Source of the DNA: Candidatus Omnitrophota bacterium
GTDB lineage: Bacteria > Omnitrophota > Gorgyraeia > Gygaellales > Profunditerraquicolaceae
Direction: 5' to 3'
Assembly: GCA_028717245.1 (NCBI GenBank)
Contig: JAQUOD010000002.1
Coordinates: forward strand, 204,772-268,771
DNA: 64,000 nucleotides
A model generated the notes under the pieces. That model searched no databases. It had not been told where the DNA came from and worked only from the letters and a program-made list of their open reading frames with translations. Numbering within the stretch: the first letter of the stretch is position 1; each line of letters opens with the position of its first letter. The translations under genes and the position numbers were made by a program. Below are positions 1 through 24,407 of this stretch, piece by piece.

Positions 1-55
1 GCTTAAATTAAACAACTTATATTTTACGGCTGAAAATGAAATAATTTCAGAAGAG

Positions 56-3000
56 ATGAAGCGTTGTGAGGCTGCTATCATGAAATTAATCATGGAACAG
101 AACGGGACTCTTTCTGATTGGGAGGTTTTTTATTATTACGGTTGGTATATGCGGATAAGGAAGAAGTCAGCAGCGGCGAGCAGATTTAGCGGTTCATCTT
201 TAAGAGGTCTCCCAAATATTGTTTTGGCGCTCGGCACAGGATTTATCGCCGCAATGCTTTTAAGAGCAAATGGCCATTCCGGTATTAATTGGTTGAATAT
301 TAGCGCTGGTTTACTATTAGCCGGATTGCCCGTTTATATCATGATAAGAGGTCTTAGAAAAATTTCCATTAACGATTTATCCCAATCCCTAAAAAAACTT
401 ACCCGCGATGATATAATAGGATTTATAATCTTGGTTGGTTACCTTATTGTATATGCTGCCATTGTTTACGCGGCATTTTGGCTTATGCAACTGACGGCTG
501 CTCCTTCTTTAGCCCCGCACTCAATGTTGCCCAATATGCCGTTTGGCCAGGCCTTACCCTTCACTATTTCAGATTTAACTGGTTTCTTCATTAGCGCCGC
601 TTTTTTGGTTGGGATGGCACGGGGTTCGATAGGCGGCGCAGGCCAGCGTAATATTATAAGGGAAAGTGGCAATGCCAAAAAGATAATGCCCGAAGACGAA
701 ATAAGGGCCTCTGTGACGAATTTATATGTATGGTTTGACATTCTTAAAGGAACGGATCCTAAGATATCAGCGGCTTTAAGTAAGATTTATTCTGCTTATC
801 AAGAATTAGATTTTAGTCAGAATAATCGGGCTAAATTAAATGAGTTAACAGAAGCAAAAGCGAGGCTTAAGGAAGGATTAGAGCAGCTCCGAGGGATTCT
901 TCTGGGGAGAGAAAATGAGCTTACAGGAGTTATGGCTAAACTACTGGAGAAACAGCGGGTAGCAAGTAAAGACGCACCAACAAGAATAGGAGAAATGAAG
1001 AGGGAGATTAAAGCAGCGCTTGCAAAACTGGAGAGCAAAAGCACTAATGCGCTTAGCCTCAATCCCTATGCATTTTCACTTATATTTTCCATTCTTGCGC
1101 CTTTTATGCCGGTTTTAGGCCCGCTTGTTAGCATTGCCGTGAACCAGATGTACTCTCTGCCGGCTTGTATATTTGTGATTGAGGCAATATTGAATAAAAC
1201 TCAAGCCAAACGCAAGCCCAAAGAAGATATGGTTAAAGAAACAGAAGATGAAAAATCCGAAAGGCTCAGGCAGGCAAAAATATATTATAAAGAAGGGCTT
1301 TATTATGCTCAGGCAGGGCTTACTGATTTCGAAAAGGGAAATGTAAAAGCAGCAAGGAGAAACTGGTTTACGGCGATACGAAACTTTAAGGAGGCAACTG
1401 ACTCAAGCTGGGAATATACCGAAGCTTATTATAATTGGGCATTAGTTTATTACAGATACTATAATACGTTTGTTAAGCAGCCATCGCCACGGGGGGTCTT
1501 CGCTAAAATTGCAGCAGCAATAAGAGGAGACGAAGAGCATAAAAAGGAAGTTTGGGAGGAATATTTATATGAGATTAAGTTTATCTTAGGATTGTTTCCA
1601 GAATTGCGGAAGAAGCTAGAGGGTAAGATTATTATACCGGATTTAGATTCAGGAGACATTTCACCGAGCCCATCTGGAGGTAATAATTCTCTAGCCCATG
1701 GTGGCGATGTTGGCAAGGCACAATTTAGCTTAGGGAGCGGTTCTGAAGCATCAGGAATAGAGTTGGTTACCGGTCGTGAACCTCGGGAGCAATATTACGG
1801 ACCAGTTCCTGACGGGGATCTATTTAGGGGCAGCACAAGAGCCAAGCATAAATTTGAGGATGGAATAACAAGAAGCAGCGGCAGAGCGCCAGGCAAGAAA
1901 ATCTATAAAAGCCAGATTATTAGAGATGCAATTAGAGATAGAATTCCTTGTTTCTTCCTGATGCTAGTGAAAAACATTGATTTTGCGGTACCGATAAAAA
2001 GGATAATCGTCCCCAGAGATATTGCGAATTTGGAATTAGAAGGGAAAACCCCTTTTGAAAAGAAAGTTATCAGGTTAAGCCATGATTTACTGAACCAACT
2101 AAAGAATCAACATAATATTGAGGTCTTGATTAAAGAAGGCGATGATTCTATTCTAGAACATGAAACTGAAGACTTTGGAATTACTTTAAACGGCGCAGAA
2201 GGAAGGTTAAGCCCGGAGAATTTTAAGGAGATCTCAAGAAAAACCGGAAGCCTTCTAGCTGGACTACATAAGGCAGGCGTAATCGCTTCGGATTCGCACC
2301 CCGCAAATTTTATCGTTAATACTGAAACGATGGAAGTAAGAAGAATAGATTTTGAGTGGGTTGACATATTTGATAAAGAGTTAGCCCGTGAGTTAACGCA
2401 AAAATATGAATTTTCCGAAGCAGAATTAAGAGGATTAGGTATCCATTCAACCAGAATACCCAGCAGTGAAATGACTAAAGAAATTCTTACTCTTATTTGG
2501 ACTGAAAAGGACAAGTCGAAAAATTTGCATAATAGTTTATTTATCTGGCCATTTGCCGGGGGGTATTTATCAGTCAAGCATGAGTTTGATGAATGGGAAG
2601 AAGACCTTGAGAGAATGCTGTATTATTTACTCTCATTTAGAGACAAGGAAGAAGGCAATTTGGGAGGCAAAGCAAATACAGAAGCCGAGCAGTATGGCAA
2701 AACAGTTCCTGAAAGTGAGCAGCCGGTAAAGGAAACAAGGCCTAATCCTGCCAGCTCAATAGAGGTGATAGAGGCAACCCCTAAATACCGCCAAGATATA
2801 ATCTCTCTCATACATAGCTCTTTCCCCGAGCTTGACAATGAAATGGAGAGGATCCTTCGGGATAATCGGGTGTTTGTGGCTTTGGTTAAAGTTAGGGAAG
2901 AATGGGAATTCGCCGGAGCGGTCCTGACCGCAATAAAGAGGGTTATCAATGAAAAAGGAGAAATTGTTCTTCCGGCTACTTATATTGATGCCTCAAAGCA

Positions 3001-6000
3001 CGAGAGTAATTTCACAGCGCAGCCCCATAGCTTTTGGTTGATTGATTTTGCTATCGCTGTTTCTCCGGAAATTAAAGTAAAAGGCATATCTGATGCTTTA
3101 ATCCAGGCTACGGATAAGTATACCGATGAGCAGGGATTAATGAGGCCAGATGCTGCCAGCCGCGCACGGGATGCAGGAAAGTTTAAAGATGCCCTTCTGC
3201 AGGAGCGGGCAAAGGCCCTTCCTGAAGCTAAAGCAAAAAACCTTTCTGGCCTTAACATAATGATACGTTACCTTATGACTACAACGCTAAACCCCAAAGG
3301 AGTGGTTAAAGATTCATTCGCAAAATATGCAGCAATGCCCAACGGTATGAGCCCGTTTTTGCTCTGGCTTAAGGAATCCAAACGCCTGGCAAGGTCAGAT
3401 GGCGTGGATGATAGCCCTTATGCCAATTTTGTTAACGTTATTTCCCCCCTCTTAGAAGAAATTGACAAACACTCCCCTAAAGACCTCGAAGGCTTCCTGA
3501 AAACTTATGATGATTTTGATTATTCCCGCCTTGCCCAGCCGGACGTGATTGAAGAATTTGGAAAACTTCTGCGTGACTTCATCAATGGTTCCTCCAGATA
3601 TGAAGACCAGATAATAGCCGGCCTGCATATGCGCCTGGGAGCCCATATCGGAAGGATAACCAAAAACAGCCTCCCCGGCCACCCCGAGACTTTAGATATG
3701 AACATCCATATGTTTTATCCAGAAAAAGTAAATGACAATATTCCACCGGCAGATAATCCGGTTTTGCCTGTACAAGGGGTGTCCCCAAATGGGACGTCCT
3801 CAGAAGCGCATGCAAGGAATATGATTCCTCCGCTTGTGTTGACTCTTTATTTTGCCAGGATGGCTGGTTTTGCTATGCCTTCTTTAGAATTATCTGCGAG
3901 CGAGATCGATCCGGTGATAGTTATACTTTTGCTTATGTTTTTATTTGTGATAAAAAAGGTAGTGGTGGAAGAGATTGATAAAAGGAGTGAAAAATTGAAT
4001 AGGGCCAGGATTGACAAGATACTCAATAGTAACGAAATAAAGGCAGATGATACAGTGGCAAAGCCCGTTATTAAAAACTATAATTATCCGGAAAGAATTA
4101 CTCCGCATAATGCTCCTATAGCAAAGGTCTTTAAAGAACCCTTGCCGCCTTCAGCCCGGTTTTATCCAAAGACAGAACCTTCATTAAGATTGATGGACTC
4201 TAAATATCAGAATATCGCAAGGGAGTTTAAAGAAGCCATTCAGAATAAACCTTTCCCAACTGAAGGTATGTTCCTTGAAATAGGCCACGGCGGGAATCTA
4301 TCTTCCCCGGGTTTTGCTATTAAATTTGGGCTTGAGCCTTGGGGCATAGATTTAGATAGGCATGCTAATGCCGATACGATAAATGATATTGTCGGACAGG
4401 CTGAAAATATCCTGCCTTTGATAAAAGATAATTCTTTTGATGTGATAGCTGTTATTGATACCTTTGGAATTATGACCAGAGAAAATAGTTTTTATAAAGC
4501 TCAACCCATAGATCCGGTATGGTTAATAATGCAAATAGCCCGGATATTGAAACCCGATGGTTATTTGGTTATCGCAGATTTTTCCGCAGATTTAGAAGAT
4601 TTGAAGTTAAAGTATGGGATGGAACTTAATAAATTAGCTGAAGGCGCAGGCCTTAAAGTTTTGAGATATCGCATTGAAGGCAGTAGGGCAATCTCTATTA
4701 TCTATAAGCCATCAGAATTATCTCCATTAGCCCCCCGCGTAGGAGCCGCTGGTTTGGAGATAGCGGAATTTAAAAAGCCGACAGAAATAGGGTTAGGTCA
4801 AAGGCCAAGTACTGCTGTTACCCTAGATGATGTTCAACTACCTTCTGTTATAGAAAAAGACCGTAAGGATGCAGCGTTAAGCAGCCGCTCAAGGATAGAA
4901 ATAGAAGAAGTGCCTATTCCTGATGCTATGGCAGAAGACGCCAGCAAGGACTCCTTTAGTTTTAAGGAATATATGGACGCTGCGTTATATAATCCTGGCT
5001 GGGGATTTTATGGCTCAGGAAGGGTGCAGTTTACGCGAGGCAAAGATTTCGAGACCTACCCTAAAATACTTTCTCCTGTATTCGGAGAGTTAGTCTGCGA
5101 ACAGGCTTTTAAGATGTGGAAAGGCATGCTGGCTGCAAAGACTATAAGCGAGGCAGAGGAATTTACAATAGTAGAATCTGGCGCAGGCGAAGCAGATTTA
5201 TCCTATGATTTATTATCCCACGCCGAAGAGTTGGCAAAATCGGATGAGCTTTGGAATATTTTCTACCGGCAGCTCGTATATATTAGTTTAGAGCGTTCGC
5301 CGAAATTAGTAAAAAGGCAGAAAGAGAAAAACGCAAAATTCAGTCCGAAATTTCGGGTTATAGAAGGGGATGCCCGCGATGTAGCTAAGCTTATCAAAAA
5401 ACCTATTAAAGGATTAATCCTTTCTAATGAACTGATGGATAATTTCGCTGTTTATAAGGTTAGATTTGAACCAGACGGCGCAACAAAGACTCCCTTAGCC
5501 ATTCCTTTAATCAGCGTTGAGCTCGCCAAGGAATTAAGCAAAAGAGGCATAATCCGAGAATTGGATTTAGCAATGAGAAACGAACAATTGAAGAAGGATT
5601 TTTATCTCCCTAACAAGAAAGGGAAACTTTATATATCTAAAAGCGATTTCTTAAAGATTAAGGCAGAATTAAGCAAGCAAGAATATAGACAGTTGGAAGA
5701 TAGCTTTGATACCCAGATAGATTTTGTTGAGGCGTATTTGGATATTAAATACTTCCCTGAATTATTCGATTATGTCCATAAGAACAGAAGGGAGCTATCT
5801 TTTGCTATAGCCAAGGAAGCAAAAGCAGTTACTGCTTATCTTAGCCCGGATGCGGTTAGGTTTATTCAGTCCGCAGCAGGAATTTTAGATAAAGGTTATA
5901 TCCTGACTATAGATTACGGAGCAAGTACGCAGGGACTCTTGAATCCAGAATACATAAAGCATCCGATAATGATGTATGGCCCTGTATCTGTACGCGATAT

Positions 6001-9000
6001 CTTCGATGCCAATCCTTATCATTTACCGGGAAAATGCGATATTACCGTAGGTGTAGATTTTACCTCTTTGGTAGAAACCGGCGAAAATGCGGGATTGAAA
6101 TTAAAATTCTATGGTGTTCAGGGGAATCTTGAGTCAGGGATAACCAATTTGTCTCATGATGAGGAATCGAAGAGCAGGATAGTAGCCCGCCGCCTTAAAA
6201 GAGAGTACCCTCAGGCGAAGGCTCCTGAAGGTTTGCAAGAGGGAATAAGAGGCCAGGTCGAAGATGACATAAGGAGTTTTAAAAAAGATTTTCTTGGTGG
6301 CAATAGCGTTAAAATGCTAATACAGCAGAAAGAAGGCACTGATGAACAGTATGAATACAAGATACCTTCCGTAGTATCTCTTGAAGAAATGAGTTTATTC
6401 GCCAGGAGAAAAATCCCGGCCAAGCAAAGGCCTTTATTCCTTGAGCCGCGGATTAACGCCGCGATATTTATCGATGATTTTTGTAATTTAGGTTTACCAG
6501 AAAAAATAGACGCAGACGTTTTAGTTAAAGCTATCCGCGCATCCGGCATATTGCTGATGCCAGATAATAAAGACAATAAAAAATTTATTAAGAAAGAACG
6601 CTTTGAACCTTACGAGTTTGCTTCAAATTCCTATCCAGCTTATCACTGGTTAGTTTTTGGAGGGCAATTGGAAGCTTGCATTGCAAATCAGGCGAGAGAG
6701 ATTATATCAGGGGTTAGCGAATGCCCTGCTAACACTAAAATGTGGATTACATTACCATTGAATGCCATCGGATGTTTTTCTGGTAGAGACGAAAGAAAGT
6801 ATGGTTTACCGAGATATTTAGCAAAGTACCTTGTAAAGGAATATAGTTCATTTGCCGAAGGCTTACGGCCAATAAAGGAACCTTATACGCAAATTGATAC
6901 TAAAGACGTAGAAATTAATTTCGGGGATTGGGCAATAGTAGAATTTGATCCATACTCTAATGCGTCGATTTTTCAAGAGAATATAGGGTTAACCATATTA
7001 GAGAACGGCCGAGAACTGTGTTGTATTAAACCTGATGGCCGAAGAATGGTAGTACTTAATTTTATCTCTAAAAAACCAGAAAATGTATTCAGTTTATTGC
7101 AACAGAGTAGCGCAATCAAACAAGCCGGACAAAAAGAGAGCATATCAGGAAATAACACCCTGCCGCAAGGCACGATTAACAAAAAAACCCTTAACCCTGC
7201 CTTAGGCCCCGGAACATATGATCCTCGAGATCTGGCAACTCTTCAGGGGCAAAACAGTAATTCTGGAAAAACAGGGTCAGATTCAATTTTTTCCTATATT
7301 CTCGCCCATGATTTTATGAGCCCTAATAAAGTGGGGTATATTCAGGCAATAAGAGCTATGTTACCGGTAAAGAATCAAAGGAGGAGGTGCCTTTATATTG
7401 CCTTAGGCGGAGATTATTCAACCAGCCAAATGGTATCGCAGGCCCTAGAAACTATTTGTGTGGATAGGCTTCCTTTTGAGCCTTTAATAACACTATCTAA
7501 AGAAGAGGCGGATTTATATAAAGCCGTGTATATCAAAGACAGGTATTATGCGAATTTTGCTTCTTCAGTCCAATCAGTTGAAGGCGCAGTATTAAGGCGC
7601 GTAGGCGCTAAAGAATATTTTCTTTGGGAATTGGAAATGATGGGAGCCCAAGATATAGAAATAAGTTTTGATACCGCCCTTAATGCCAATAAGATTAGTT
7701 TTATCCTCCCGGGCGAATCGATGCAAAAAAGCATAATTTATTTTAGTTTTGACGCCAGGAATATAGAAGCCTACCCTCAGGCTCTGCTCAACCTTATAAA
7801 AGAAGGATTAGATTCTTTTATTTTTAAAGCCAGCGACGGCGTGGTTTTACCTCTTCAGATCAAAGACATAATTACCAACTCCTTTGATCCGGAAGCTATG
7901 CTGTTTCTGGATAGCGAAGCTTCATTTAGCCACACTTATCTTGAAGAGATAGATGAGGCAAAAATGGGGCAAATCAGGAATTTTGAAAAAATGGGTTATG
8001 CCTTTGGATATGAAAAAGTTCGTTTATTAAGGCCTAAAAAGCCCGAAATCCCCTCCCTCCCCGCAGGTGGGATAGAGGTTGAGAAAAGAAAGACACGGCA
8101 GCATCATTCGAATGACATATATCAGGAACCGTCCCCGCTGCCGTCTCTGCTAGCTAAGAATAGAATAGAGGTTTACCTAGATGATATTGCCCCCAGATTT
8201 TTTAAATTAATGAGAGCTGAATTTTCAGATGATAACAGGCTTTGTCTTATTTCTTCCAGAATTACGGGTTTAGTCCTGGCAGATAAATTTGGGATTCCTA
8301 TAGATAACAAGAGCGCCAATAGGATGGAGGTAAGGTTATGCCCTTATTTTGATGATGGCGGGAAACGTTACCATCAGATGCTTATAATTTATCGCAATAA
8401 TAACCCATGGCTTTTTGTTTATCCTGTCCTGGGATTGTTCTATAGCGGCTTAGAAGGCAGGATAATCTGCAGGGATTATCAGAAATTAAGCGAGTACAAT
8501 TTTATGGACCAGGGAAGGACAAGCTGGGTTCTCGATGAGCAGTTACAACAAAGAATAGAAAGGGTAGCCCAAGAGATTGTAGGGGATGGAAATTTAGGCT
8601 ATGGCAGCATAGCGACAACACAGCTGGCACCTTTTGAGAAGATATCCAGGGCATTAAAAATAGAAAAACTGCTTAATGAAAACTTACGGCAGGAAGGATT
8701 AAATACTCCCATTAAACATGAAGGAACAAAGGGGCTTTTCTACGAATCGGATATTTCTGATGTGGTCAAGGCCTGTCAGGTAATAGGCCTTGAGGGTAAA
8801 AGAGGCATTGATTTAGGCGCAGGCGTTGGCCACGCAGTGTTTGCTATGGCAGTAGCCGGCCTTCGGGGAGTAGGCATAGAATGGGAAAACCATTTAATTG
8901 GTATTGGTAATGGCCTCTTAGATAACAAAGAATTGAAGAAACTCGTTGATACCAGCCGCGTTGACTTAAGGCAGGGCGATTTTATGCAGGAAGATTTAAG

Positions 9001-12000
9001 CCAATACGACATAATTTACTATTATTGGAATGGCGCAGGTTATGGCAATGAAAATAAAGCCCAGGATGCGCTTATGCAAAAGATTAAGCAAGAAATGAGG
9101 CCGGATACCCTGTTGATTATTTACAGAGGGCTTGATACGCTTTCCCTCCCGGGATTTGAAAGAAAAGATTACCCCGGAATTCCCGAGACGGTGAGAGTAT
9201 TTAGGAAAGCCGAGGATATACGCAGCGATTTAGATAGCCCTGATGCAGAAATTAGAAGCAAAGCCATAAGTACTTTGCTGCGCTCAGACGAATACACGGA
9301 TAAAGAAAAGACACTTTTATTATTAAAAAGAGTTATGCAGGACGATGATAAATCAGTACGCACAGAAGCAAGAAGGGCGCTTACTATTCTCTGGTATGTA
9401 ATTGAAGGAAGGCCGAATAATAATTTTGCTGAAGTCCTGCAAGATGTGGGGCAGGGGCTTGCAAAACCAGAACGCGAAACTTTATTAGATATTCTGGTAA
9501 ATTCATTCCTTAACCGGGAAAGCCGCTATGCGCTTAACCGCTTTTGTTTGGATACATTTATGAAAGAGAATCCTAAAGTAAAGATTAATATCGACGAACG
9601 AATTCTGGAAGCAGACAATGTTGCCCCATATCTTATAACCATTGCCGGGCAGCTTTCCGGAATAAATCAGGAGAGCCTGAATTTAGAAATTATATTTTTG
9701 GATAACGTAAATGCAATTGAGAACAGGATTATGGAATCAGAGATTACCTTGCGTAAATATGGGGAGAACGGGCCAAGGGAGATGTTGATTAATATAGCCG
9801 CATTTAAAGAAAAAGCAGGCTATTCTTCGCAGGAGAACGTTATTTTCGCCAAAAAGATTTCCGAGGTATTGAATCAGTGCATTAATAAAGATAGCTGTGA
9901 TTTCGCTCCGATTGACAATACCAAAGCGGCATTGGAGGGTTTTGTGCCTTTGGATGAAAGCTTTCTCTGGAAGATAAGCAATTTATATTGGCAGTTAATG
10001 GGGAAGGATTCTTTTAAAGACCCGTACGCAGATACTTCGTTTTTCCCTGAATTACCCACGCACTTGAGAAAGGTACCCAACGGTTTATATGTTTATCACA
10101 GTTTTGCTTCTGCCTGCGCGGATAAATTCTCTAAGTATCTTTGCGAATTAGAAAATAGAGGCGATTTACCCGGGAGGATTATTGTTCAAGAATGGGGCGT
10201 GGGGAATGCCGATTTTCCGGAAAAGTTCCTGGGCGCCCTAAAACGGCTAAGCGCAGAAAAAGTAAAACAGCAGGGAGGGACGGATTTTTACGGGAGGGTA
10301 ACTTATGTAATAGGCGATATATCCCTTAAGATGTTAGAGAATATACGGCAGGCAGAATGGTACCCCCAGCATAAAGAGAAGATAGAATTTTCCGTAATGG
10401 ATGCCGTAAACCCTCCCCAGGCTTATCGGGGCAGGACTCTATTATTGATAAATAGCTATCTCTATTGCGTATTGCCGGCAAAAGTGATTGCGAAGAAAGA
10501 GGGCCGTTTTTACGAGATGTGCGTAAGGGCGTATCTGAATAAAGACATACGTATTAAAACCCGGGAGGGAAAGGACGTTTCAGCCGAAGAATTCACAGAG
10601 ATGCTGGTAAAAAATGATATACAGGCGCTTTCAAAACTCAACCCGTCTTTCTGGTATGCGTTGAATTATGAAGAGGTATATAAAGAATTTGATCCTCGGA
10701 GTAATAGCTGGGGTGATTACATAGCATGGATAACGCAAGGTAAAGATAATTGCCGGTTCATAATTAATAATCAGGCGTTAGAGAGCTTAACAAAGTCGCT
10801 TGATTTATTAGATGAAAAAAGAGGGATGATTTGGATATTTGAATTGACTTCGCCGGATGCATTAAATAACCCCCTTGCCGGCCCGATGAGTTTTGGCCCT
10901 ACGCTGGCTACACCTGTAAATACATCCTTATTGGAATACGCAATTAATAAAAACCGCGGTTGGAAAATCTCGGTTTCTCCTTCAACTATGTTTTTGCCGG
11001 AAGATACGAAGCGCGCCCAAAAATATACCTATATTGAAGTAGAAAAGAACAAATCCCCGCATATAGATACAAAAAATACGGCCTTATGTTTCAATCCCTT
11101 CATATTTTCGCTTCTTATCCCTTCCCTTATGCCCCTTATTATATTTTTGGGCGTGGCGGTATTTCCCTCTGCTCCTTTCATACCCGCGTGGCTGCCTGTA
11201 ATCAAAACAATGGTTACTAGCGCTGTAGTAAAGATTCAAAATATAGTTAGTAAGATAAAGGATAGATTCATACAAATAAAGCCAGTCCTTTATTTAGATA
11301 TATTAATATTCTTTTTTACAATCGGCATATTTATTCCTCTCTATTTCTTCCGAGATAAGATAGGAGAATTAGGAGCCTATGGCTATTTTGTGGCGTTCTG
11401 TATCTCAATACTCACTAACCTGACGGTATTTTTCCCTGTTCCAGGCATTGTAGCAACAGGTGCTTTAGCAACTGTGTTTAACCCTTTTTGGATTGGTATC
11501 GTGGTTGGCATAGGGGCGACTATCGGACAGATTACAAGTTATGGTTTTGGTTATAGCGGTAAATCCATAATTAATGGAAATCGTATCTACCAAAAACTGA
11601 TGAATTGGATACAGGGTTTGCTAATATACAAAAAAATAAATAACTGGGTAGAGAAACGGCCAAACCTGTCTATTTTTATTAGTTACTTTTTTCCTATTCC
11701 GGGTGTATCTGATACTGTCGGAGCAATAGCCGGTAGCGCAAAGTACCCTTTTTGGAAATACTTTATCTTTTGTATGTTAGGCAATATCCCTAAACATATC
11801 TTTTATGCTTATTTTAGCGCCTGGGGATTAAATTTATTTTTCCCGGATATTTTTAAATTGGGTATCTCCGGAAATCCTTTAATCTCTTTACCTCTTCTGG
11901 CAATAGCAAACTTACCTATAATGGGATATGATGATTTTGAAGGAGAAGAAGGAGAAAACCACAGAAAGAGGCCAAAGAATAAAAAAAGAAGAGAGGAAGA

Positions 12001-14530
12001 CGATATCGAAGCCCGGCTTAAGAATGTGGTGAGATTTACAGATGTGCAAGAAGCTGTTTCTAAAGCGCCAGTTAAAGAAAGATCTGTATCTGCGCAGGCA
12101 GTGGTTGTAGAGAATTCAGCAGAGGGAAGAAAAATTACTCCCAAGCAAGCCAAACCGGTTACAAAAATCAAGGCCACGGGAGTTGATAGGTTAAGGCAGA
12201 TTTCCGTTTTGCTTGAAAGAGGATTGGCGTCCGATGGGTTTACGGGATTTCAAAGAGAGGCTTATGAGATTAGCGAAGAAATGGCAGCAGAGCAAGGCAA
12301 TGTTGCCTTAAAACAACTCTACGATTTAATTACAAGGCCGGATTTACACCAAGGCGTAAACAGGTGGATAATCGGAGGAATAAGTAATTATTTTAAGCGT
12401 CCGAGCGTGAGCTTAAAGGATATTATGCTTTTACTTGCCGACGAATTTTGGCAAGATAACGCGGGAACAGGAAATATGATAACCGGCGTAATGATAACGG
12501 CGGTTAAAAGGCGATTACCCGAATATAAGGGCGCTGCAGGGATCGTCGAATTACACGTCCTGCTCCACGATAAGAATATTCGTAAGTATAAAGGCCTGCG
12601 CGCCTTGTTGTACAATCAAATCAGGGGCGATTTAAATAATATAATTTCCCTCAACGAATTAATTGAATTATATTTAAGCCAGAGATGGTTCGAGGGCGTG
12701 GGCAGGAATATGGTATTTCCCAGAATAGAAGAATTGATCGGTAAAGGCGCGTTAGCGCGGGTTGATTTTTTTAAGCTGGCTAACTGGTATATGGACCCTT
12801 TTCTTGATTCGGAAAGAAATGAAAAATCATTTTGTGAAGAACTGAATAGAAGGATTAGGGGCTTAGATTTAAATACAATAGATTCATACCTCGTTGATTC
12901 CGGCATCCCTAGAGAAGTAAAAGAATTAATACGGAAAATAAGAGGTGATGAACTTAAGGGTTTCTACGAAGAAAAAGAAAGGGAAAAGAAAGAGGCAGAT
13001 AGAAAACAAAAGATAGGGGGTCATTTGGCTTGCGTAGAGAGATTAAGCGCGGAGGGTAAATTAGAGGAATCGTCGGCAGAATTACGGGTACTACTTGAAG
13101 TTGAGCCTGAAGATGAAGGAGCGTTGTTAGAGTTTATGCTGCAACGGTGCAGCAACGCACAAGTCTTAAATAATTATATCCGTATCAGGAAAGATTTTAT
13201 AATAGATAAAATTCTGGAGGCCAAAGAAGGCAGGCCAGATTATTTCTATTGTTTGCTTGAAGTCATGCAAAAAGTTTACGGCCGGCAGGATATAGACAAA
13301 AAGGTCGCAGAGGAATTTAAAGCTCAGGCGCAAGAAATAATAAAATCCATAATTGACAGGGACATCAAAAAAATAAACCATATCTTTACGCTTCCTGCCA
13401 GCAGAGAGGTAAAACTTGGCATGCGCGATGAGATTCTGGGAGGCCTTTTTCTAAAGACGGATGATTTAGTAAAACGATTCCTGGATACCTTATCTGAAAA
13501 TGAAATCCCTGTGTTTCTGGAGTCAATGTCAGGAGCCGTCGCTTTTTATGATTTATGCGCGCGCAAGGATATAAGTAATGCCATAAGGGCGCAGCTTAGG
13601 CAGATAGTAGATTCAGCCATTGATTTTATATACTTTAACCGTTCGTTTGACTTGCCGCGCAATACTATGCTGTTTATTAAATGCCTGCTTAGTAAGGAAG
13701 AGTTTTCTCAGACTGTATTCAGCGTTCAGGCAGAGTTGATGCCTTATTTACAAGAAGACAATCAGGATAAACTGATGGGATTTGTGATGGATAAAAATAT
13801 TTCTTATAAGGAAAAGAAGGCAATTTTATTCCGGTTAGCGATGTTGTGGACAGAGTTTTTGAATAAAGACGGAAGCCCAGGGCAGATAGCTAATCTGTGC
13901 GATAATGCTGACCCGCTGGTTAGGGCGTATCTTTATTATGCCTTGTCTTTGATACGCAGCCCTAAATATGACGAGGCGAAGGCGATACAACAAGAGCTTG
14001 CGCGTAAAATAGCGGGTCTGGTTAAGGCAGGACAGATAAATAGAAAAGCGTTGATGGATATTCTTTATGAACTTCAGCCGGTAGATAGTCGTAACAGGTT
14101 GTTCTTAATCTACTGTATAGTGGCATCTTTAGCGGTTGAGAGAAAGATTTCCGCGTTCATTCCCAAGGAAAATCCGGGCGGTAAGATGTTAACAAAAGAT
14201 AGCAGTAAGTTGATAAAAGAAGCGTTGGCCGAAGCAGCAGAGAGCGATTTTGTAAAGAGCGATAGCTGGCATCAAGAATTGATTGAAGACGCGTTATGGT
14301 TGCTTGAGCAGGATGATAATTTAAAGAAACATGCCCTGAGGAATATAATTGAATTGATTACAGCTGCGGGGAGCTCAAGTAATATTTGGGCACTCTATAG
14401 GCGTAAGATTGACGCTTTGAAGAAGAAAAGAAAGGGCACTCTTGGCAATGTAGTTACTATTCCGGGCAAACAGGAACCGTTTACAAGGCAACAGCGTTCG
14501 CCTGGATGGGATGGTTTTATTTATAAGTAG
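56..14530 (+). CDS. giant multidomain membrane protein (4,824 aa): N-terminal TM bundle and coiled coil, two atypical kinase-like modules, Methyltransf_11-like SAM MTase, two MidA/NDUFAF7-like MTase modules, DOT1-like MTase motif, HEAT-like repeats, embedded DedA/VTT-like multi-TM block, helical C-terminal third
   Basis: Single uninterrupted 14.5-kb frame in an AT-rich genome; the other five frames show only ORFs under 160 aa. ATG at 56, but this frame has no stop back to base 2, so the true start may lie upstream of the window. Motifs were read directly from the translation (see findings). Confidence 0.85.
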   Translation: MKRCEAAIMKLIMEQNGTLSDWEVFYYYGWYMRIRKKSAAASRFSGSSLRGLPNIVLALGTGFIAAMLLRANGHSGINWLNISAGLLLAGLPVYIMIRGLRKISINDLSQSLKKLTRDDIIGFIILVGYLIVYAAIVYAAFWLMQLTAAPSLAPHSMLPNMPFGQALPFTISDLTGFFISAAFLVGMARGSIGGAGQRNIIRESGNAKKIMPEDEIRASVTNLYVWFDILKGTDPKISAALSKIYSAYQELDFSQNNRAKLNELTEAKARLKEGLEQLRGILLGRENELTGVMAKLLEKQRVASKDAPTRIGEMKREIKAALAKLESKSTNALSLNPYAFSLIFSILAPFMPVLGPLVSIAVNQMYSLPACIFVIEAILNKTQAKRKPKEDMVKETEDEKSERLRQAKIYYKEGLYYAQAGLTDFEKGNVKAARRNWFTAIRNFKEATDSSWEYTEAYYNWALVYYRYYNTFVKQPSPRGVFAKIAAAIRGDEEHKKEVWEEYLYEIKFILGLFPELRKKLEGKIIIPDLDSGDISPSPSGGNNSLAHGGDVGKAQFSLGSGSEASGIELVTGREPREQYYGPVPDGDLFRGSTRAKHKFEDGITRSSGRAPGKKIYKSQIIRDAIRDRIPCFFLMLVKNIDFAVPIKRIIVPRDIANLELEGKTPFEKKVIRLSHDLLNQLKNQHNIEVLIKEGDDSILEHETEDFGITLNGAEGRLSPENFKEISRKTGSLLAGLHKAGVIASDSHPANFIVNTETMEVRRIDFEWVDIFDKELARELTQKYEFSEAELRGLGIHSTRIPSSEMTKEILTLIWTEKDKSKNLHNSLFIWPFAGGYLSVKHEFDEWEEDLERMLYYLLSFRDKEEGNLGGKANTEAEQYGKTVPESEQPVKETRPNPASSIEVIEATPKYRQDIISLIHSSFPELDNEMERILRDNRVFVALVKVREEWEFAGAVLTAIKRVINEKGEIVLPATYIDASKHESNFTAQPHSFWLIDFAIAVSPEIKVKGISDALIQATDKYTDEQGLMRPDAASRARDAGKFKDALLQERAKALPEAKAKNLSGLNIMIRYLMTTTLNPKGVVKDSFAKYAAMPNGMSPFLLWLKESKRLARSDGVDDSPYANFVNVISPLLEEIDKHSPKDLEGFLKTYDDFDYSRLAQPDVIEEFGKLLRDFINGSSRYEDQIIAGLHMRLGAHIGRITKNSLPGHPETLDMNIHMFYPEKVNDNIPPADNPVLPVQGVSPNGTSSEAHARNMIPPLVLTLYFARMAGFAMPSLELSASEIDPVIVILLLMFLFVIKKVVVEEIDKRSEKLNRARIDKILNSNEIKADDTVAKPVIKNYNYPERITPHNAPIAKVFKEPLPPSARFYPKTEPSLRLMDSKYQNIAREFKEAIQNKPFPTEGMFLEIGHGGNLSSPGFAIKFGLEPWGIDLDRHANADTINDIVGQAENILPLIKDNSFDVIAVIDTFGIMTRENSFYKAQPIDPVWLIMQIARILKPDGYLVIADFSADLEDLKLKYGMELNKLAEGAGLKVLRYRIEGSRAISIIYKPSELSPLAPRVGAAGLEIAEFKKPTEIGLGQRPSTAVTLDDVQLPSVIEKDRKDAALSSRSRIEIEEVPIPDAMAEDASKDSFSFKEYMDAALYNPGWGFYGSGRVQFTRGKDFETYPKILSPVFGELVCEQAFKMWKGMLAAKTISEAEEFTIVESGAGEADLSYDLLSHAEELAKSDELWNIFYRQLVYISLERSPKLVKRQKEKNAKFSPKFRVIEGDARDVAKLIKKPIKGLILSNELMDNFAVYKVRFEPDGATKTPLAIPLISVELAKELSKRGIIRELDLAMRNEQLKKDFYLPNKKGKLYISKSDFLKIKAELSKQEYRQLEDSFDTQIDFVEAYLDIKYFPELFDYVHKNRRELSFAIAKEAKAVTAYLSPDAVRFIQSAAGILDKGYILTIDYGASTQGLLNPEYIKHPIMMYGPVSVRDIFDANPYHLPGKCDITVGVDFTSLVETGENAGLKLKFYGVQGNLESGITNLSHDEESKSRIVARRLKREYPQAKAPEGLQEGIRGQVEDDIRSFKKDFLGGNSVKMLIQQKEGTDEQYEYKIPSVVSLEEMSLFARRKIPAKQRPLFLEPRINAAIFIDDFCNLGLPEKIDADVLVKAIRASGILLMPDNKDNKKFIKKERFEPYEFASNSYPAYHWLVFGGQLEACIANQAREIISGVSECPANTKMWITLPLNAIGCFSGRDERKYGLPRYLAKYLVKEYSSFAEGLRPIKEPYTQIDTKDVEINFGDWAIVEFDPYSNASIFQENIGLTILENGRELCCIKPDGRRMVVLNFISKKPENVFSLLQQSSAIKQAGQKESISGNNTLPQGTINKKTLNPALGPGTYDPRDLATLQGQNSNSGKTGSDSIFSYILAHDFMSPNKVGYIQAIRAMLPVKNQRRRCLYIALGGDYSTSQMVSQALETICVDRLPFEPLITLSKEEADLYKAVYIKDRYYANFASSVQSVEGAVLRRVGAKEYFLWELEMMGAQDIEISFDTALNANKISFILPGESMQKSIIYFSFDARNIEAYPQALLNLIKEGLDSFIFKASDGVVLPLQIKDIITNSFDPEAMLFLDSEASFSHTYLEEIDEAKMGQIRNFEKMGYAFGYEKVRLLRPKKPEIPSLPAGGIEVEKRKTRQHHSNDIYQEPSPLPSLLAKNRIEVYLDDIAPRFFKLMRAEFSDDNRLCLISSRITGLVLADKFGIPIDNKSANRMEVRLCPYFDDGGKRYHQMLIIYRNNNPWLFVYPVLGLFYSGLEGRIICRDYQKLSEYNFMDQGRTSWVLDEQLQQRIERVAQEIVGDGNLGYGSIATTQLAPFEKISRALKIEKLLNENLRQEGLNTPIKHEGTKGLFYESDISDVVKACQVIGLEGKRGIDLGAGVGHAVFAMAVAGLRGVGIEWENHLIGIGNGLLDNKELKKLVDTSRVDLRQGDFMQEDLSQYDIIYYYWNGAGYGNENKAQDALMQKIKQEMRPDTLLIIYRGLDTLSLPGFERKDYPGIPETVRVFRKAEDIRSDLDSPDAEIRSKAISTLLRSDEYTDKEKTLLLLKRVMQDDDKSVRTEARRALTILWYVIEGRPNNNFAEVLQDVGQGLAKPERETLLDILVNSFLNRESRYALNRFCLDTFMKENPKVKINIDERILEADNVAPYLITIAGQLSGINQESLNLEIIFLDNVNAIENRIMESEITLRKYGENGPREMLINIAAFKEKAGYSSQENVIFAKKISEVLNQCINKDSCDFAPIDNTKAALEGFVPLDESFLWKISNLYWQLMGKDSFKDPYADTSFFPELPTHLRKVPNGLYVYHSFASACADKFSKYLCELENRGDLPGRIIVQEWGVGNADFPEKFLGALKRLSAEKVKQQGGTDFYGRVTYVIGDISLKMLENIRQAEWYPQHKEKIEFSVMDAVNPPQAYRGRTLLLINSYLYCVLPAKVIAKKEGRFYEMCVRAYLNKDIRIKTREGKDVSAEEFTEMLVKNDIQALSKLNPSFWYALNYEEVYKEFDPRSNSWGDYIAWITQGKDNCRFIINNQALESLTKSLDLLDEKRGMIWIFELTSPDALNNPLAGPMSFGPTLATPVNTSLLEYAINKNRGWKISVSPSTMFLPEDTKRAQKYTYIEVEKNKSPHIDTKNTALCFNPFIFSLLIPSLMPLIIFLGVAVFPSAPFIPAWLPVIKTMVTSAVVKIQNIVSKIKDRFIQIKPVLYLDILIFFFTIGIFIPLYFFRDKIGELGAYGYFVAFCISILTNLTVFFPVPGIVATGALATVFNPFWIGIVVGIGATIGQITSYGFGYSGKSIINGNRIYQKLMNWIQGLLIYKKINNWVEKRPNLSIFISYFFPIPGVSDTVGAIAGSAKYPFWKYFIFCMLGNIPKHIFYAYFSAWGLNLFFPDIFKLGISGNPLISLPLLAIANLPIMGYDDFEGEEGENHRKRPKNKKRREEDDIEARLKNVVRFTDVQEAVSKAPVKERSVSAQAVVVENSAEGRKITPKQAKPVTKIKATGVDRLRQISVLLERGLASDGFTGFQREAYEISEEMAAEQGNVALKQLYDLITRPDLHQGVNRWIIGGISNYFKRPSVSLKDIMLLLADEFWQDNAGTGNMITGVMITAVKRRLPEYKGAAGIVELHVLLHDKNIRKYKGLRALLYNQIRGDLNNIISLNELIELYLSQRWFEGVGRNMVFPRIEELIGKGALARVDFFKLANWYMDPFLDSERNEKSFCEELNRRIRGLDLNTIDSYLVDSGIPREVKELIRKIRGDELKGFYEEKEREKKEADRKQKIGGHLACVERLSAEGKLEESSAELRVLLEVEPEDEGALLEFMLQRCSNAQVLNNYIRIRKDFIIDKILEAKEGRPDYFYCLLEVMQKVYGRQDIDKKVAEEFKAQAQEIIKSIIDRDIKKINHIFTLPASREVKLGMRDEILGGLFLKTDDLVKRFLDTLSENEIPVFLESMSGAVAFYDLCARKDISNAIRAQLRQIVDSAIDFIYFNRSFDLPRNTMLFIKCLLSKEEFSQTVFSVQAELMPYLQEDNQDKLMGFVMDKNISYKEKKAILFRLAMLWTEFLNKDGSPGQIANLCDNADPLVRAYLYYALSLIRSPKYDEAKAIQQELARKIAGLVKAGQINRKALMDILYELQPVDSRNRLFLIYCIVASLAVERKISAFIPKENPGGKMLTKDSSKLIKEALAEAAESDFVKSDSWHQELIEDALWLLEQDDNLKKHALRNIIELITAAGSSSNIWALYRRKIDALKKKRKGTLGNVVTIPGKQEPFTRQQRSPGWDGFIYK

Positions 14531-15564: not shown

Positions 15565-15906
15565 ATGGAGGACCGCAGGGTGTTCGCCCGGATAAATACC
15601 AGTTTTCCTGTAAGATTCTTAGACCCCACTCGCGGGATAGAGGGCCGGGCAGAGACGGTGGACATTAGCGCTAATGGCTTGGGTTTAGTTACTCAAGAAA
15701 ACTTATCGTCCAGGACGCCTTTAGAGATTTGGTTGGACATTCCTGACCAACATGAGCCGCTGTATACCCGGGGGAATGTGGTCTGGTCACAGGCCTCTTC
15801 CGATGCAGGGCAGCAGCGCGTAGGCATACGTTTGGAAAAAGCCGAACTCATGGGCCTGGCGCGCGTATTATGGATGCGGAAACAAGCAGAGGATAGGTTT
15901 AATTGA
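15565..15906 (+). CDS. single PilZ-domain protein, paralog of the C-terminal half of the upstream tandem PilZ protein
   Basis: RVFARI ... DISANGLGL motif. Roughly half the residues are identical to residues 130-229 of the upstream protein. RBS GGAAGGAGAG. Confidence 0.7.
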   Translation: MEDRRVFARINTSFPVRFLDPTRGIEGRAETVDISANGLGLVTQENLSSRTPLEIWLDIPDQHEPLYTRGNVVWSQASSDAGQQRVGIRLEKAELMGLARVLWMRKQAEDRFN

Positions 15907-15914
15907 GTTTGTTA

Positions 15915-17249
15915 ATGAAAAGGATTTGTTGCGCGTTTTTATTTGTTTTTTGTTCTTTTTTATGCCTCGCCGGTTGCGTGCCGCAGCAGTCGGATAAATA
16001 CCAAACCACCTTGACTGTCTGGCATTGGATGACCGACAGAGAAGAAGCCTTCCAGGAGTTGGCCAAAAGATATGAGGCTTCTTCCGGCGTAAAAGTAAAT
16101 TTTGAACTCTACGCGCCATCGGATGCCTACGCGCAGAAGGTGCGCGCTGCTGCCCAGGGGCAAAACCTTCCTGATATTTTTGGCGTGCTGGGCGAGACGC
16201 GGGATTTCGCGTCCTTTATAAAGGCGGGCCATGTCTTGGGCCTGACCTCCTATATGGATGCAGACAGCGCTAAATGGCGTAATACTTTTTTCAGTAAGGC
16301 CCTGGCAGTAAACGGATTCTCCGACGGTAACAGCTACGGCATCAAACCCGGCATTTACGGCGTACCCATAGATATTATGACCATCCAGATGGTCTATAAC
16401 AAGGATTTATTCAAGAAATTAGGGCTTAACCCCAATGCGCCTCCGGAAACTTTTGCGCAATTCCTGGAGATAGGAAAAAAGATATCCGCCACAAATCGTG
16501 GCGGATCGGGCGGAAAAGAGGCAAAGATGCAGGGCCTGGTTTCCGGGTGGGGAGAGATATGGATGATAGATTGTTTAGCAAACAATTACGCTTTTAATAT
16601 CATGGGCGAGGACAAGGTATTGGCCACCATAAAAGGTGAGATTCCCTATACCGATCCCGATTGGGTCAGGGTATTAACGCTTTTTAAGGAGATGCAGGAT
16701 TCGGGGGTTTTATATAACGGATTGGTGACCATGGCCAATAAGAACGCGGAGCAGTTATTTGCTAACGGAAGGGCGGTCTTTGCCTTTAACGGTTCATGGT
16801 GCGTAAATGTATATAAGTCCATGAATCCGCGCCTGGATTACGCCGCAATGCTCCTGCCAAAGGCCTCGGAAAAATTTCCGGTGAGTATCTGGGGAGGCGC
16901 CGGTTCTTCATTTATGGTAAGCGCTAAATCAAAAAATAAAGAAGAGGCAGTAAATTTTTTAAAATGGCTTACTGACCGCAGCCAACAGGCATATTTAGCG
17001 CAAACTACTTCCAACCCCCCGGCAAATAAAGAGGCGTTAAGTGAGATTCCTCCTGTCCTGGCGCAGTTTGCCGATGATATGGAGTACGCCACGCATCCGA
17101 ATACTTGGGGCGTATCCGAGTCACCCCAGGTTATAGAAACCTTTAATAGAGGGATACAGTCAATAATTATCGGCGAGAAGAGCCCCGAACAGGTAGCGCA
17201 GGAAACGCAGAAGATTAAAGAAAAAGAATTAGCAAAAAAGAAACGATGA
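15915..17249 (+). CDS. ABC transporter substrate-binding lipoprotein, carbohydrate (family 1 SBP)
   Basis: Lipobox LAGC after a hydrophobic signal; overall extracellular solute-binding protein pattern. ATG 15915 is preferred over the TTG at 15903 reported by the ORF track. Confidence 0.7.
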   Translation: MKRICCAFLFVFCSFLCLAGCVPQQSDKYQTTLTVWHWMTDREEAFQELAKRYEASSGVKVNFELYAPSDAYAQKVRAAAQGQNLPDIFGVLGETRDFASFIKAGHVLGLTSYMDADSAKWRNTFFSKALAVNGFSDGNSYGIKPGIYGVPIDIMTIQMVYNKDLFKKLGLNPNAPPETFAQFLEIGKKISATNRGGSGGKEAKMQGLVSGWGEIWMIDCLANNYAFNIMGEDKVLATIKGEIPYTDPDWVRVLTLFKEMQDSGVLYNGLVTMANKNAEQLFANGRAVFAFNGSWCVNVYKSMNPRLDYAAMLLPKASEKFPVSIWGGAGSSFMVSAKSKNKEEAVNFLKWLTDRSQQAYLAQTTSNPPANKEALSEIPPVLAQFADDMEYATHPNTWGVSESPQVIETFNRGIQSIIIGEKSPEQVAQETQKIKEKELAKKKR

Positions 17250-17276
17250 TTTCGTTATTGGGTTACTTGCGTTTTT

Positions 17277-17327
17277 GCGTTATAGCGTTCGAACGCAATA
17301 ACGCTATAACCCTATAACGCTATAACG
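17277..17327 (+). promoter_or_regulatory. 28-bp imperfect palindrome centred on GCGTTCGAACGC, plus three CTATAAC(G) direct repeats, between the SBP and permease genes
   Basis: GCGTTATAGCGTTCGAACGCAATAACGC is self-complementary except for one position per arm. It is followed by GCTATAAC CCTATAAC GCTATAAC immediately before the ATG at 17328. Confidence 0.4.
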
Positions 17328-18206
17328 ATGAGAATTAAGTCCACATTAGAAAATTATCTATTTGTTTTGCCCGCGGTATTAATCTTCGTTATTTTTTACA
17401 TTATTCCTTTTATCTGGGTCTTTCAACTGGGGATGTATGAATGGGACGGTATACTCCCCACCAAGGTCTTTGTGGGCCTGGCGAATTTTAAGGAGATATT
17501 CTTTGAAGATAAGATCTGGTGGCAGTCCATGCTTAACGCCGGATGGATTACTTTTATTGCTTTAACTTTTCAAAATGCCCTGGCATTTCTTTTAGCCTTA
17601 GCCTGTGACCGCGAGATAAAACTAAAGCATTTTTACCGGCTCATCTTTTTTATCCCGCCGGTTTTATCCGAGGTAGTGGTAGGCCTGGTCTGGCAGTGGA
17701 TGCTCGACGGGAACTATGGGTTGTTAAATCATTGGCTTACGCAATTAGGCCTGGGGAATTTAGCCAGGAATTGGCTCTCTGACCCCCGAACCGCACTTAC
17801 TACCGTGGCTATTGTGCATTCCTGGAAGGGGTTTGGCTGGGGATTTTTGATATTTTTAGCCGGCCTGCAGACGATACCGCGCGAACTCTATGAGGCGGCG
17901 CGCTTAGACGGAGCAAATGCCTGGCATTGTTTTAAAAAGATTACCCTTCCTTTAATGGTGCCTGTGGCAGTATTGGTAGGGATACTCACGGTCTTAGGCA
18001 CCATGCAGGCTTTTGTCCTGATTACGGCCATGACCGACGGCGGCCCGGCATATCATACGCAGGTGCCGGTGCTAAGGATCCTGTGGGCAATGCGCGGTTC
18101 ATCGCGTTTCGGTTATGCCTGTGCCCAGGGGATTAGTTTCGGTTTGATTCTGGTGGCAATTTCTTTTATTCAGTACCGTTTTTCGCGCAAGGCGCGCCAA
18201 GCATAA
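17328..18206 (+). CDS. carbohydrate ABC transporter permease (MalF/UgpA-like, 6 TM)
   Basis: EAA-type permease motif region ELYEAARLDGA...ITLP. Confidence 0.75.
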   Translation: MRIKSTLENYLFVLPAVLIFVIFYIIPFIWVFQLGMYEWDGILPTKVFVGLANFKEIFFEDKIWWQSMLNAGWITFIALTFQNALAFLLALACDREIKLKHFYRLIFFIPPVLSEVVVGLVWQWMLDGNYGLLNHWLTQLGLGNLARNWLSDPRTALTTVAIVHSWKGFGWGFLIFLAGLQTIPRELYEAARLDGANAWHCFKKITLPLMVPVAVLVGILTVLGTMQAFVLITAMTDGGPAYHTQVPVLRILWAMRGSSRFGYACAQGISFGLILVAISFIQYRFSRKARQA

Positions 18207-18208
18207 AC

Positions 18209-18315
18209 TCGCACCTGGTGCGAAACTGAGATTGTACCGTTTCTGAATTTAAGCTTGTACCTGGTACCCGATTGGTTTCGCAGACGGTATAAGATTGGAT
18301 CTGCACCTGGTGCCA
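18209..18315. repeat. degenerate composite copy of REP family A (GCACCWGGTGC palindromes)
   Basis: GCACCTGGTGCGAAACTGAGATTGTACC, then GTACCTGGTACCCGATTGGTTTCGCA, then GCACCTGGTGCC. It matches the other family A copies with substitutions. Confidence 0.55.
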
Positions 18316-18322
18316 AAATGAA

Positions 18323-19171: not shown

Positions 19172-19179
19172 AAAAATTG

Positions 19180-19216
19180 TTTAATGCGCGAGGCATATTT
19201 GTTATAATGCCCATAC
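19180..19216 (+). promoter_or_regulatory. candidate promoter with extended -10 (TGTTATAAT) for the MFS gene
   Basis: TTAATG-16-TATAAT with TG at -15/-14; RBS AAAGGAGAGAGG before the ATG at 19264. Confidence 0.4.
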
Positions 19217-19263
19217 TTATCGTCACTAATTAGGTAAAACCTAATAAAGGAGAGAGGTTATCA

Positions 19264-20763: not shown

Positions 20764-20799
20764 TATATCCAAGGGAGTAACCATGGGAGCGATTGTAGG

Positions 20800-24402: not shown

Positions 24403-24407
24403 AACCC

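Follow-up and report, generated by a model that had tools for sequence, protein, structure and literature searches.

A long Omnitrophota protein with four predicted methyltransferase modules and an embedded DedA/VTT domain

Giant genes are numerous in Candidatus Omnitrophota and functionally opaque. Long multi-enzyme proteins from this lineage, anchored by transmembrane (TM) segments and with methyltransferase, kinase-type and HEAT content, have been catalogued in their thousands (10.1101/2023.11.21.568195; 10.64898/2026.06.07.730766). Two of the groups described – the 'Archaeovorin'-type proteins (West-Roberts et al. 2023) and the 'multi-enzyme, TM-only, Module 1' class (10.64898/2026.06.07.730766) – are the closest systems to the gene discussed here, a giant open reading frame (ORF) at the left end of a 64,000-nucleotide (nt) stretch of contig JAQUOD010000002.1 from a Candidatus Omnitrophota bacterium; this whole stretch is referred to below as the window. 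The 'TM-only' class, in which methyltransferase domains are over-represented, accounts for 46% of the long Omnitrophota proteins on record there (bioRxiv 10.64898/2026.06.07.730766). According to West-Roberts et al. (2023, bioRxiv 10.1101/2023.11.21.568195), most full-length Omnitrophota giants carry a divergent SecA DEAD-like domain, and the majority of the giant genes share a downstream arrangement, in which one or more small pilZ genes come first and are followed by genes for a solute-binding protein (SBP), for ABC permeases and for a glycosidase; a type II/type IV-like secretion locus precedes the giant gene.

The gene is a further example of these already described giant/long proteins, not a new kind: its homologs, together with its locus context, place it in the described class, and they also back the guess at Omnitrophota made in the first-pass annotation of this DNA. 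It is a comparatively small example, and one with readable parts. The reading that we favour – about evenly balanced as a whole in our estimation, and held less firmly in its functional part – is that this is an Omnitrophota-type long protein, encoded in a conserved giant-gene locus, that would serve as a membrane-tethered, cytoplasm-facing platform for the modification of other proteins.

The giant frame and its modules

The ORF is confirmed as a genuine gene. The first-pass annotation had reported a single unbroken frame of 14.5 kb, nothing longer than about 160 amino acids (aa) in the five other frames, and a length too great for chance, and it was right on each count: the frame holds 4,824 codons, the longest competitor in the same stretch reaches 156 aa, and with stops expected at 6.8% of codons from the regional base composition, so long a stop-free run would arise by chance with a probability of ~1.5e-148. 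No tandem repeats were found in the nucleotide sequence of the ORF, nor did BLAST find internal repeats in the protein. Neither GC content per codon position nor codon usage shifts along the gene (first half against second, r = 0.95), and with a composition so uniform nothing points to unrelated sequences having been joined. The GC content of third codon positions (GC3) is 0.39 in the giant gene (0.36–0.45 along its length) as against 0.45–0.58 in 16 other genes of the window (14605-58385), and the correlation of codon frequencies between the giant gene and the other window genes is 0.87; a long gene that is poorly expressed, and whose codons are thus under weak selection, is one possible explanation, a different evolutionary history another.

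Profile comparisons show this one chain to carry four predicted class I S-adenosylmethionine (SAM) methyltransferase modules, all of which the first-pass annotation had picked out in some form (their coordinates, with those of the other features, are collected in Table 1). The Methyltransf_11-like module is the first along the chain, with Pfam Methyltransf_31/11 matches to the whole protein that span aa 1400–1517. The MidA/NDUFAF7-type module that follows (module 1) scores 99.3 bits against a Pfam cutoff of 23.3 over profile positions 1–245 of 249, matches the PDB structure 4f3n with E 3e-7, retains the SAM motif E-x-G-x-G as well as DYG, and is 41–43% identical to modules found inside Omnitrophota giant ORFs. 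What had been noticed as a DOT1-like motif turns out to be a small module of its own. Its own sequence reaches Pfam DOT1 (PF08123) only at E 0.0091, its 16 bits falling short of the cutoff of 23; its class I motifs are intact, and the profile of its family matches PDB 5bxy (E 1.3e-13), aKMT 5fa8 (E 3.4e-13) and 5jwj (E 1e-11), as well as DOT1L (E 1e-9 to 3e-5). Given these structural matches, and with six of the ten family members matching Pfam DOT1, the label 'DOT1-like' probably stands. The second MidA-like module, detectable by profile–profile comparison only, aligns with the module 1 family in hhalign with a probability of 98.9% (E 1.7e-17, 291 columns), and several of its homologs match Methyltransf_28 directly, down to E 2.4e-13; it is therefore real, if divergent, keeping the motif I sequence EWGVGN and having the family motifs NELYDDLP and DYG altered.

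The multi-TM block for which a DedA/VTT-like character had been proposed does contain a complete VTT domain: Pfam VTT_dom scores 48.3 bits over aa 3796–3921 (E 1.8e-12), above its cutoff of 33.9. The module as a whole (aa 3729–3957) aligns over its full length, both re-entrant-loop regions included, with stand-alone DedA-like proteins of ~180–230 aa, to which it is 30–45% identical. A HMMER search with aa 2850–4049 against 1.84 billion representative proteins returned 1,289 matches, of which those listed each cover one module (aa 2866–3054, 3349–3600 or 3729–3957); 351 matches, counted over all three modules, lie below E 1e-10, and among those listed most are DedA proteins of ~200 aa. The undecaprenyl-phosphate (UndP) flippases (COG0586) are characterised by acidic residues (Glu/Asp) in re-entrant helix 1 and an Arg pair in helix 2 (Todor et al. 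2023, PMC10127716). The VTT module reads PVPGIVATG in re-entrant helix 1 and also carries IPGVSDTVGAIAGSAKY, with neither the acidic pair nor the Arg pair, and it scores 17.9 bits against NCBIfam UptA, whose cutoff is 250; since both pairs are lacking, it would appear to resemble the putative scramblase-type DedA subfamily and not the UndP flippases.

A Kyte–Doolittle scan finds ~15 hydrophobic segments in four clusters, in agreement with the four TM helices near the N-terminus and the two further ones first read from the translation. The 'single TM' reported beyond these stands as the strong segment at aa 1284–1304; it is probably half of a hairpin, with the weak segment at aa 1256–1275 as its partner and positive charge, as expected for the cytoplasmic side, on both flanks. 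By lysine/arginine (K/R) counts around the hydrophobic clusters, the K/R-rich flanks of all TM clusters share one side of the membrane, and no signal peptide is present at the N-terminus; the large soluble blocks are therefore placed in the cytoplasm. By the positive-inside rule, this would apply to the N-terminus and to aa 190–335, 380–1255, 1305–3675 and 3960–4824 alike – an orientation that requires hairpins at aa 336–378, 1256–1304 and 3679–3716, and that suits both the cofactors on which SAM- and ATP-dependent folds draw and the 'TM-only' class of Omnitrophota long proteins.

Other parts of the chain are fainter. The kinase-like core has the AVPIK Lys and, at aa 733–772, a catalytic loop (LHKAGVIASDSHPANFIV) and RRIDFE; its HRD reads ASD and its DFG reads DFE, candidates for the catalytic Asp, the Asn and the DFG Asp being present. 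The same loop draws Pfam matches to Pkinase (E 0.02, 14.7 bits against a cutoff of 31.7), WaaY and ABC1, NCBIfam matches to Bud32 (E 0.0044, 16.5 bits against a cutoff of 125) and LanKC (E 0.003), and a match to PADLOC PD-T4-6 (E 5.8e-4, aa 706–767), and 12 of the 14 sub-threshold PDB matches of the core are protein kinases. A word-seeded search found no homolog of the kinase-like region (aa 560–1256), and a single-sequence AlphaFold2 model of aa 590–1260 was unusable, with a predicted local distance difference test score (pLDDT) of 34. Of the two kinase-like loops originally proposed, then, the first has sub-threshold profile support, whereas the second – DSPYANF at aa 1119 – is a motif-level resemblance that no profile matched, and we discard it. 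Equally rejected was a GNAT-like reading of aa ~905–1030 (window 2768–3145), where a motif A look-alike (LIDFAIAVSPEIKVKGISDALIQ) comes with an Acetyltransf_7 match of only E 0.28.

The HEAT-like repeats, the TPR-like patch and the coiled coil of the first-pass annotation all persist in weakened form. About two HEAT units are recognisable, with HEAT_2 (PF13646) at 18.2 bits under its cutoff of 27.7 and Cnd1 likewise below cutoff; the patch reaches TPR_11 at E 0.088, also under cutoff; and the charged segment at aa 200–335 shows its modest periodicity with no profile match. The highly charged linker was confirmed. Two further modules, X1 and X2, are conserved and lack a recognised fold. X1 has no Pfam match, its profile finds nothing in the PDB, and it is 27% identical to the corresponding part of the protein P0028. 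X2 is shared only with the Omnitrophota protein P0001 (43% identity), and metagenome scans gave no further relatives; a transglutaminase- or papain-like reading of it, suggested by eye because its two invariant residues fall at a predicted helix start (Cys) and within a predicted strand (His), was dropped for want of profile or PDB support. The C-terminal region (aa 3960–4824) has no Pfam match and, by word-seeded search, no homolog among 5.8 billion proteins. For aa 1–559 and 1257–1639 the comparison was confined to Pfam, NCBIfam and the PDB.

Relatives, locus and module order

The named homologs of the non-DedA modules all come from Candidatus Omnitrophota (P0001, P0005, P0017, P0134, P0143, P0062, P0022 and P0157, and the loci L001 and L003). 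The best named matches include NQU96001.1, MFC1666310.1, MFH1062785.1, MFH1847882.1, MDD4939503.1 and a protein of Candidatus Tantalella remota; P0001 is 41% identical over the MidA module. In two Omnitrophota metagenome-assembled genomes that are GTDB representatives, the frames that enclose the MidA module are open for at least 5,408 aa (L001) and at least 6,099 aa (L003), and independent assemblies have the same modules embedded in ORFs of 4,400–7,600 aa. A third locus (L002, positions 3-8474 of QMZJ01000003.1), binned as the archaeon Candidatus Altiarchaeales, holds a frame open for at least 2,824 aa, with a MidA module 36% identical to that of the giant protein; its label could reflect a mis-binned Omnitrophota contig or an inter-domain transfer. 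The ORFs of L001–L003 have only the MidA module in common with the giant protein, and no synteny was found between these loci and the window.

The claim that no comparable protein is known did not hold up. MDD4939503.1 (P0157; 4,853 aa) has the same core module order: its X1 and VTT modules, 40.6% and 34% identical to those of the giant protein, occur in the same sequence, and its Pfam map between them shows PCMT, HEAT_2, Methyltransf_11 and TPR, where the giant protein has X2, the DOT1/aKMT-like methyltransferase, the HEAT-like repeats and the second MidA-like module. HEAT_2 of MDD4939503.1 fills the slot of these HEAT-like repeats, but the HEAT region of the giant protein bears no sequence similarity to the equivalent regions of its relatives, MDD4939503.1 included. 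P0028 (5,424 aa) is in turn colinear with the giant protein for X1, the second MidA-like module and VTT. Different methyltransferase families in conserved slots may hint, in three proteins, at selection on the arrangement and not on particular sequences. In P0007 (7,631 aa; a JGI metagenome), the second MidA-like module is found at the N-terminus (aa 8–323) and the DOT1-like one at aa 6817–6970.

The surroundings of the gene – a giant gene, two pilZ genes, a sugar importer and a glycosidase – match the conserved Omnitrophota giant-gene locus. The first pilZ gene begins 74 nt beyond the stop codon of the giant gene, and no terminator-like site lies between them. On the other side, the window begins 55 nt upstream of the ORF.

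Functional reading and competing explanations

The methyltransferase families involved – MidA/NDUFAF7, DOT1/aKMT and, in MDD4939503.1, PCMT – have characterised members that methylate proteins; NDUFAF7, for one, methylates Arg85 of NDUFS2 (PMC3829151). Taken with the cytoplasmic placement of the soluble blocks, this makes a membrane-tethered protein-methylation platform the likeliest interpretation, and not an extracellular effector. The methyltransferase modules would methylate Arg or Lys side chains of client proteins, or of the protein itself, at the inner face of the membrane; the kinase-like core would perhaps phosphorylate the same clients; the VTT module might scramble lipids or provide a specialised anchor; and the co-located PilZ proteins may bring the system under the control of cyclic di-GMP (c-di-GMP). 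A more specific proposal is speculative, and we regard it as unlikely on present evidence: that X1, protein methyltransferase, HEAT, methyltransferase and VTT form a selected cassette, in which swappable protein-methylating enzymes would sit beside a non-flippase DedA scramblase domain, making up an undescribed Omnitrophota-specific system for membrane-coupled methylation that might possibly act on adjacent secretion or pilus parts under c-di-GMP/PilZ control.

Several observations weigh against the platform. Modules for which any homolog was detected make up only ~36% of the chain, and ~64% is unexplained. The orientation comes from a hydropathy scan and charge counting, and the TM segment that it requires at aa 1256–1275 is only weakly hydrophobic. 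As for the catalytic parts, the kinase-like core falls below every curated cutoff; 5bxy, the best PDB match of the DOT1-like module, was deposited as an RNA methyltransferase; the second MidA-like module, being off two family motifs, may be inactive; and arginine methylation in the MidA family is known only for mitochondrial NDUFAF7 (PMC3829151). As for module order, three proteins would show two or three modules colinear by chance in about 1 case in 12, and P0007 has its DOT1-like and MidA-like modules in the order opposite to that of the giant protein.

Of the alternatives, the one with the strongest claim – short of even, and compatible with the platform reading – is that the ORF is the 3′ part of a larger giant gene cut by the window or contig edge, perhaps one with the SecA-like and other modules usual in Omnitrophota giants. 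No in-frame stop precedes the ATG at position 56 and the frame is open from window base 2, so 4,824 aa is a lower bound; the two other forward frames meet stops within the first 11 nt of the window. The right edge of the window cuts a minus-strand gene (63608-64000, 131 codons open from the edge), which means that the edges are arbitrary, untrimmed to gene boundaries, and that the ORF could continue upstream; a cut placed at random would, besides, hit the interior of so long a gene far more often than the 55 nt just upstream of its start. L001 and L003 are likewise open to their locus edges, and the protein lacks the SecA DEAD-like domain reported in most full-length giants. Set against this are the predicted N-terminus, usual in form with a basic stretch and then the first TM; an open run of 18 stop-free codons, for which base composition gives an estimated chance expectation of ~17%; a plausible Shine–Dalgarno sequence (GAGG) 8 nt upstream of the ATG at position 80; and the 25% GC of the first 55 nt, a value as low as in only 1.3% of 55-nt windows inside the ORF, which favours, without proof, a real start at ATG56 or ATG80. 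That the frame is instead an assembly or frameshift artefact joining separate genes is very improbable: the low GC3 relative to the neighbouring genes would fit it, but a random mis-join cannot yield 4,824 stop-free codons, composition and codon usage are uniform, no repeats able to seed mis-assembly are present, and the same modules recur inside long ORFs of independent assemblies.

The remaining alternatives concern what the protein does. We are doubtful, without dismissing the idea, that it is a loose accretion, in which enzymes of independent origin and a DedA protein were fused with no functional coupling and each module does its own unrelated job. Each listed database match covers one module, relatives share one to three modules with unrelated content between, two modules stand in opposite order in P0007, and 80% of Omnitrophota proteins of at least 10 kAA (thousand amino acids) are sequence singletons (Omnitrophota catalogue); the recurrence in MDD4939503.1 of the order X1, methyltransferase, HEAT, methyltransferase, VTT with other methyltransferase families in the slots, the colinearity of P0028 and the protein-directed members found in all the methyltransferase families involved speak against it. 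The first-pass annotation had suggested an envelope, secreted, host or prey substrate, and a related hypothesis of West-Roberts et al. would make the protein an extracellular, prey-directed effector whose soluble blocks modify or bind the prey or host envelope; HEAT repeats are predicted to be extracellular in Archaeovorins (10.1101/2023.11.21.568195), and 39% of the catalogued Omnitrophota long proteins combine a signal peptide with TM helices (10.64898/2026.06.07.730766). For the present protein this is improbable and the earlier suggestion is not borne out: there is no signal peptide, the charge bias puts the soluble blocks inside, each catalytic fold identified depends on SAM or ATP, neither of which is available outside the cell, and the domain searches revealed no glycosidase, peptidase, dockerin or adhesin in it. 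Least credible of all is an anti-phage defence protein that, like BREX or MADS, pairs methyltransferase with kinase activity. PADLOC does return mad2 (E 6e-7, aa 2909–3022) besides PD-T4-6, but the two matches span only a generic SAM-binding core or a kinase catalytic loop; no DNA-methyltransferase family, nuclease, ATPase or partner defence gene accompanies them, and the neighbours are transport and sugar-metabolism genes.

If the platform reading, with its cytoplasm-facing modules, is true, at least part of the gene class would be an internal modification platform and not a prey-directed weapon, which would change how giant-gene loci are interpreted. The conserved methyltransferase–HEAT–VTT arrangement is a modest new lead, and single modules of 150–480 aa make tractable constructs for biochemistry.

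Feature coordinates and comparison with known systems

Table 1. Features of the giant ORF and of the genes downstream of it (window coordinates; aa, residues of the giant protein)
Feature	Position	Residues	Strand	Basis or remark
Giant ORF	56..14530	4,824 aa	+	minimum length; frame open to window base 2
N-terminal 4-TM cluster	197..622	aa 48-189	+	Kyte–Doolittle scan and flanking charge; 5 K/R before TM1
Charged helical/coiled-coil-like segment, weakly supported	653..1060	aa 200-335	+	modest 3.5-residue hydrophobic periodicity
TM hairpin	1061..1189	aa 336-378	+	hydropathy scan and flanking charge
Atypical protein-kinase-like core	1943..2455	aa ~630-800	+	convergent sub-threshold matches on one catalytic loop
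Probable TM hairpin	3821..3967	aa 1256-1304	+	weak segment aa 1256-1275, strong TM aa 1284-1304
Predicted class I SAM methyltransferase, Methyltransf_11/31 type	4235..4606	aa 1394-1517	+	Pfam E 1.3e-10 and 3.9e-6, above cutoffs
Predicted MidA/NDUFAF7-type module 1	4931..6370	aa 1626-2105	+	Pfam Methyltransf_28, aa 1679-2016, E 3.2e-28
X1, conserved module without recognised fold	7220..8041	aa 2389-2662	+	40.6% identity to MDD4939503.1, E 2.5e-53
X2, conserved module without recognised fold	8162..8527	aa 2703-2824	+	invariant Cys2730 and His2773
Predicted DOT1/aKMT-like small class I methyltransferase	8651..9217	aa 2866-3054	+	54% identity to Omnitrophota MDO8489173.1
HEAT-like repeats, ~two recognisable units	9218..9505	aa 3055-3150	+	HEAT_2 E 0.003, Cnd1 E 0.0085
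Second, divergent MidA-like module	10058..10978	aa 3335-3641	+	hhalign against module 1 family
Membrane block: TM hairpin, complete DedA/VTT domain, terminal TM	11090..11929	aa 3679-3958	+	
Charged linker and orphan C-terminal region	11930..14527	aa 3959-3990 and 3991-4824	+	
Two PilZ-domain genes	14605-15294, 15565-15906		+	Pfam PilZ E 4e-24 and 5e-12
Sugar ABC importer (SBP_bac_8, two BPD_transp_1 permeases), MFS_2 sugar transporter, GH2-like glycosidase	15903..23145		+	

Beyond these features, the rest of the window holds ordinary bacterial housekeeping genes, and neither tRNAs nor Rfam features occur in the window. An adjacent pair of ORFs (382 and 419 aa; 23254-25748), lying 3′ of the GH2-like gene, matches nothing in Pfam at E up to 0.001. 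Between positions 1 and 61222, every ORF of at least 150 aa with a Pfam match is on the plus strand, the scan having covered all but a few minus-strand ORFs of that size that lie in gaps or overlap plus-strand ORFs. The cumulative GC skew climbs steadily to ~58 kb and is flat thereafter, and the first minus-strand genes appear at 61260-63628. Two gaps between plus-strand genes, of 771 nt (27411-28181) and 630 nt (35368-35997), have 33–37% GC; each holds only one minus-strand ORF of 160–180 aa, without supporting evidence, and neither has an Rfam match.

Set beside the catalogued Omnitrophota giants, the protein is alike in its methyltransferase and putative kinase-type and HEAT content, in consisting mostly of orphan sequence, and in its TM density, ~1 per 320 aa against ~1 per 370. 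It differs in size, as at 4.8 kAA it falls under both catalogue thresholds (at least 10 kAA, and more than 30 kAA, that is >30,000 aa, for 'giant'), and in having no SecA DEAD-like, glycosyltransferase, glycosidase, peptidase, NUDIX or GGDEF domain by Pfam and NCBIfam; no SecA family occurs among the matches to these two databases at E up to 1. Term searches within the two Omnitrophota catalogue papers turned up neither MidA-type modules nor an embedded VTT/DedA domain, and a literature search found no paper linking Omnitrophota with DedA. The DedA/VTT family (PF09335) comprises three subfamilies, in each of which 90–99% of the proteins are single-domain (PMC10127716), whereas the VTT domain of the giant protein lies ~3,700 aa into the chain.

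Canonical MidA/NDUFAF7 proteins (PF02636, COG1565; PDB 4f3n and 1zkd) are stand-alone and ~380–430 aa long, whereas the giant protein has two copies embedded in a membrane protein; module 1, with its insertion of ~90 aa, passes the Pfam cutoff of the family, and module 2 is remotely homologous to it. For aa 2866–3054, the family profile matches the archaeal aKMT and eukaryotic DOT1L protein-lysine methyltransferases, although the giant's own sequence remains under the Pfam cutoff for DOT1. MDD4939503.1, which is annotated as a protein-L-isoaspartate O-methyltransferase, is without the MidA module, the kinase-like core, X2 and the long C-terminal region after VTT, and has winged-helix helix-turn-helix and TPR modules. 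Its methyltransferase slots hold PCMT and Methyltransf_11 where those of the giant protein hold the DOT1/aKMT-like and MidA-like modules, yet the two proteins are of near-equal length and share the order X1, protein methyltransferase, HEAT, methyltransferase and VTT.

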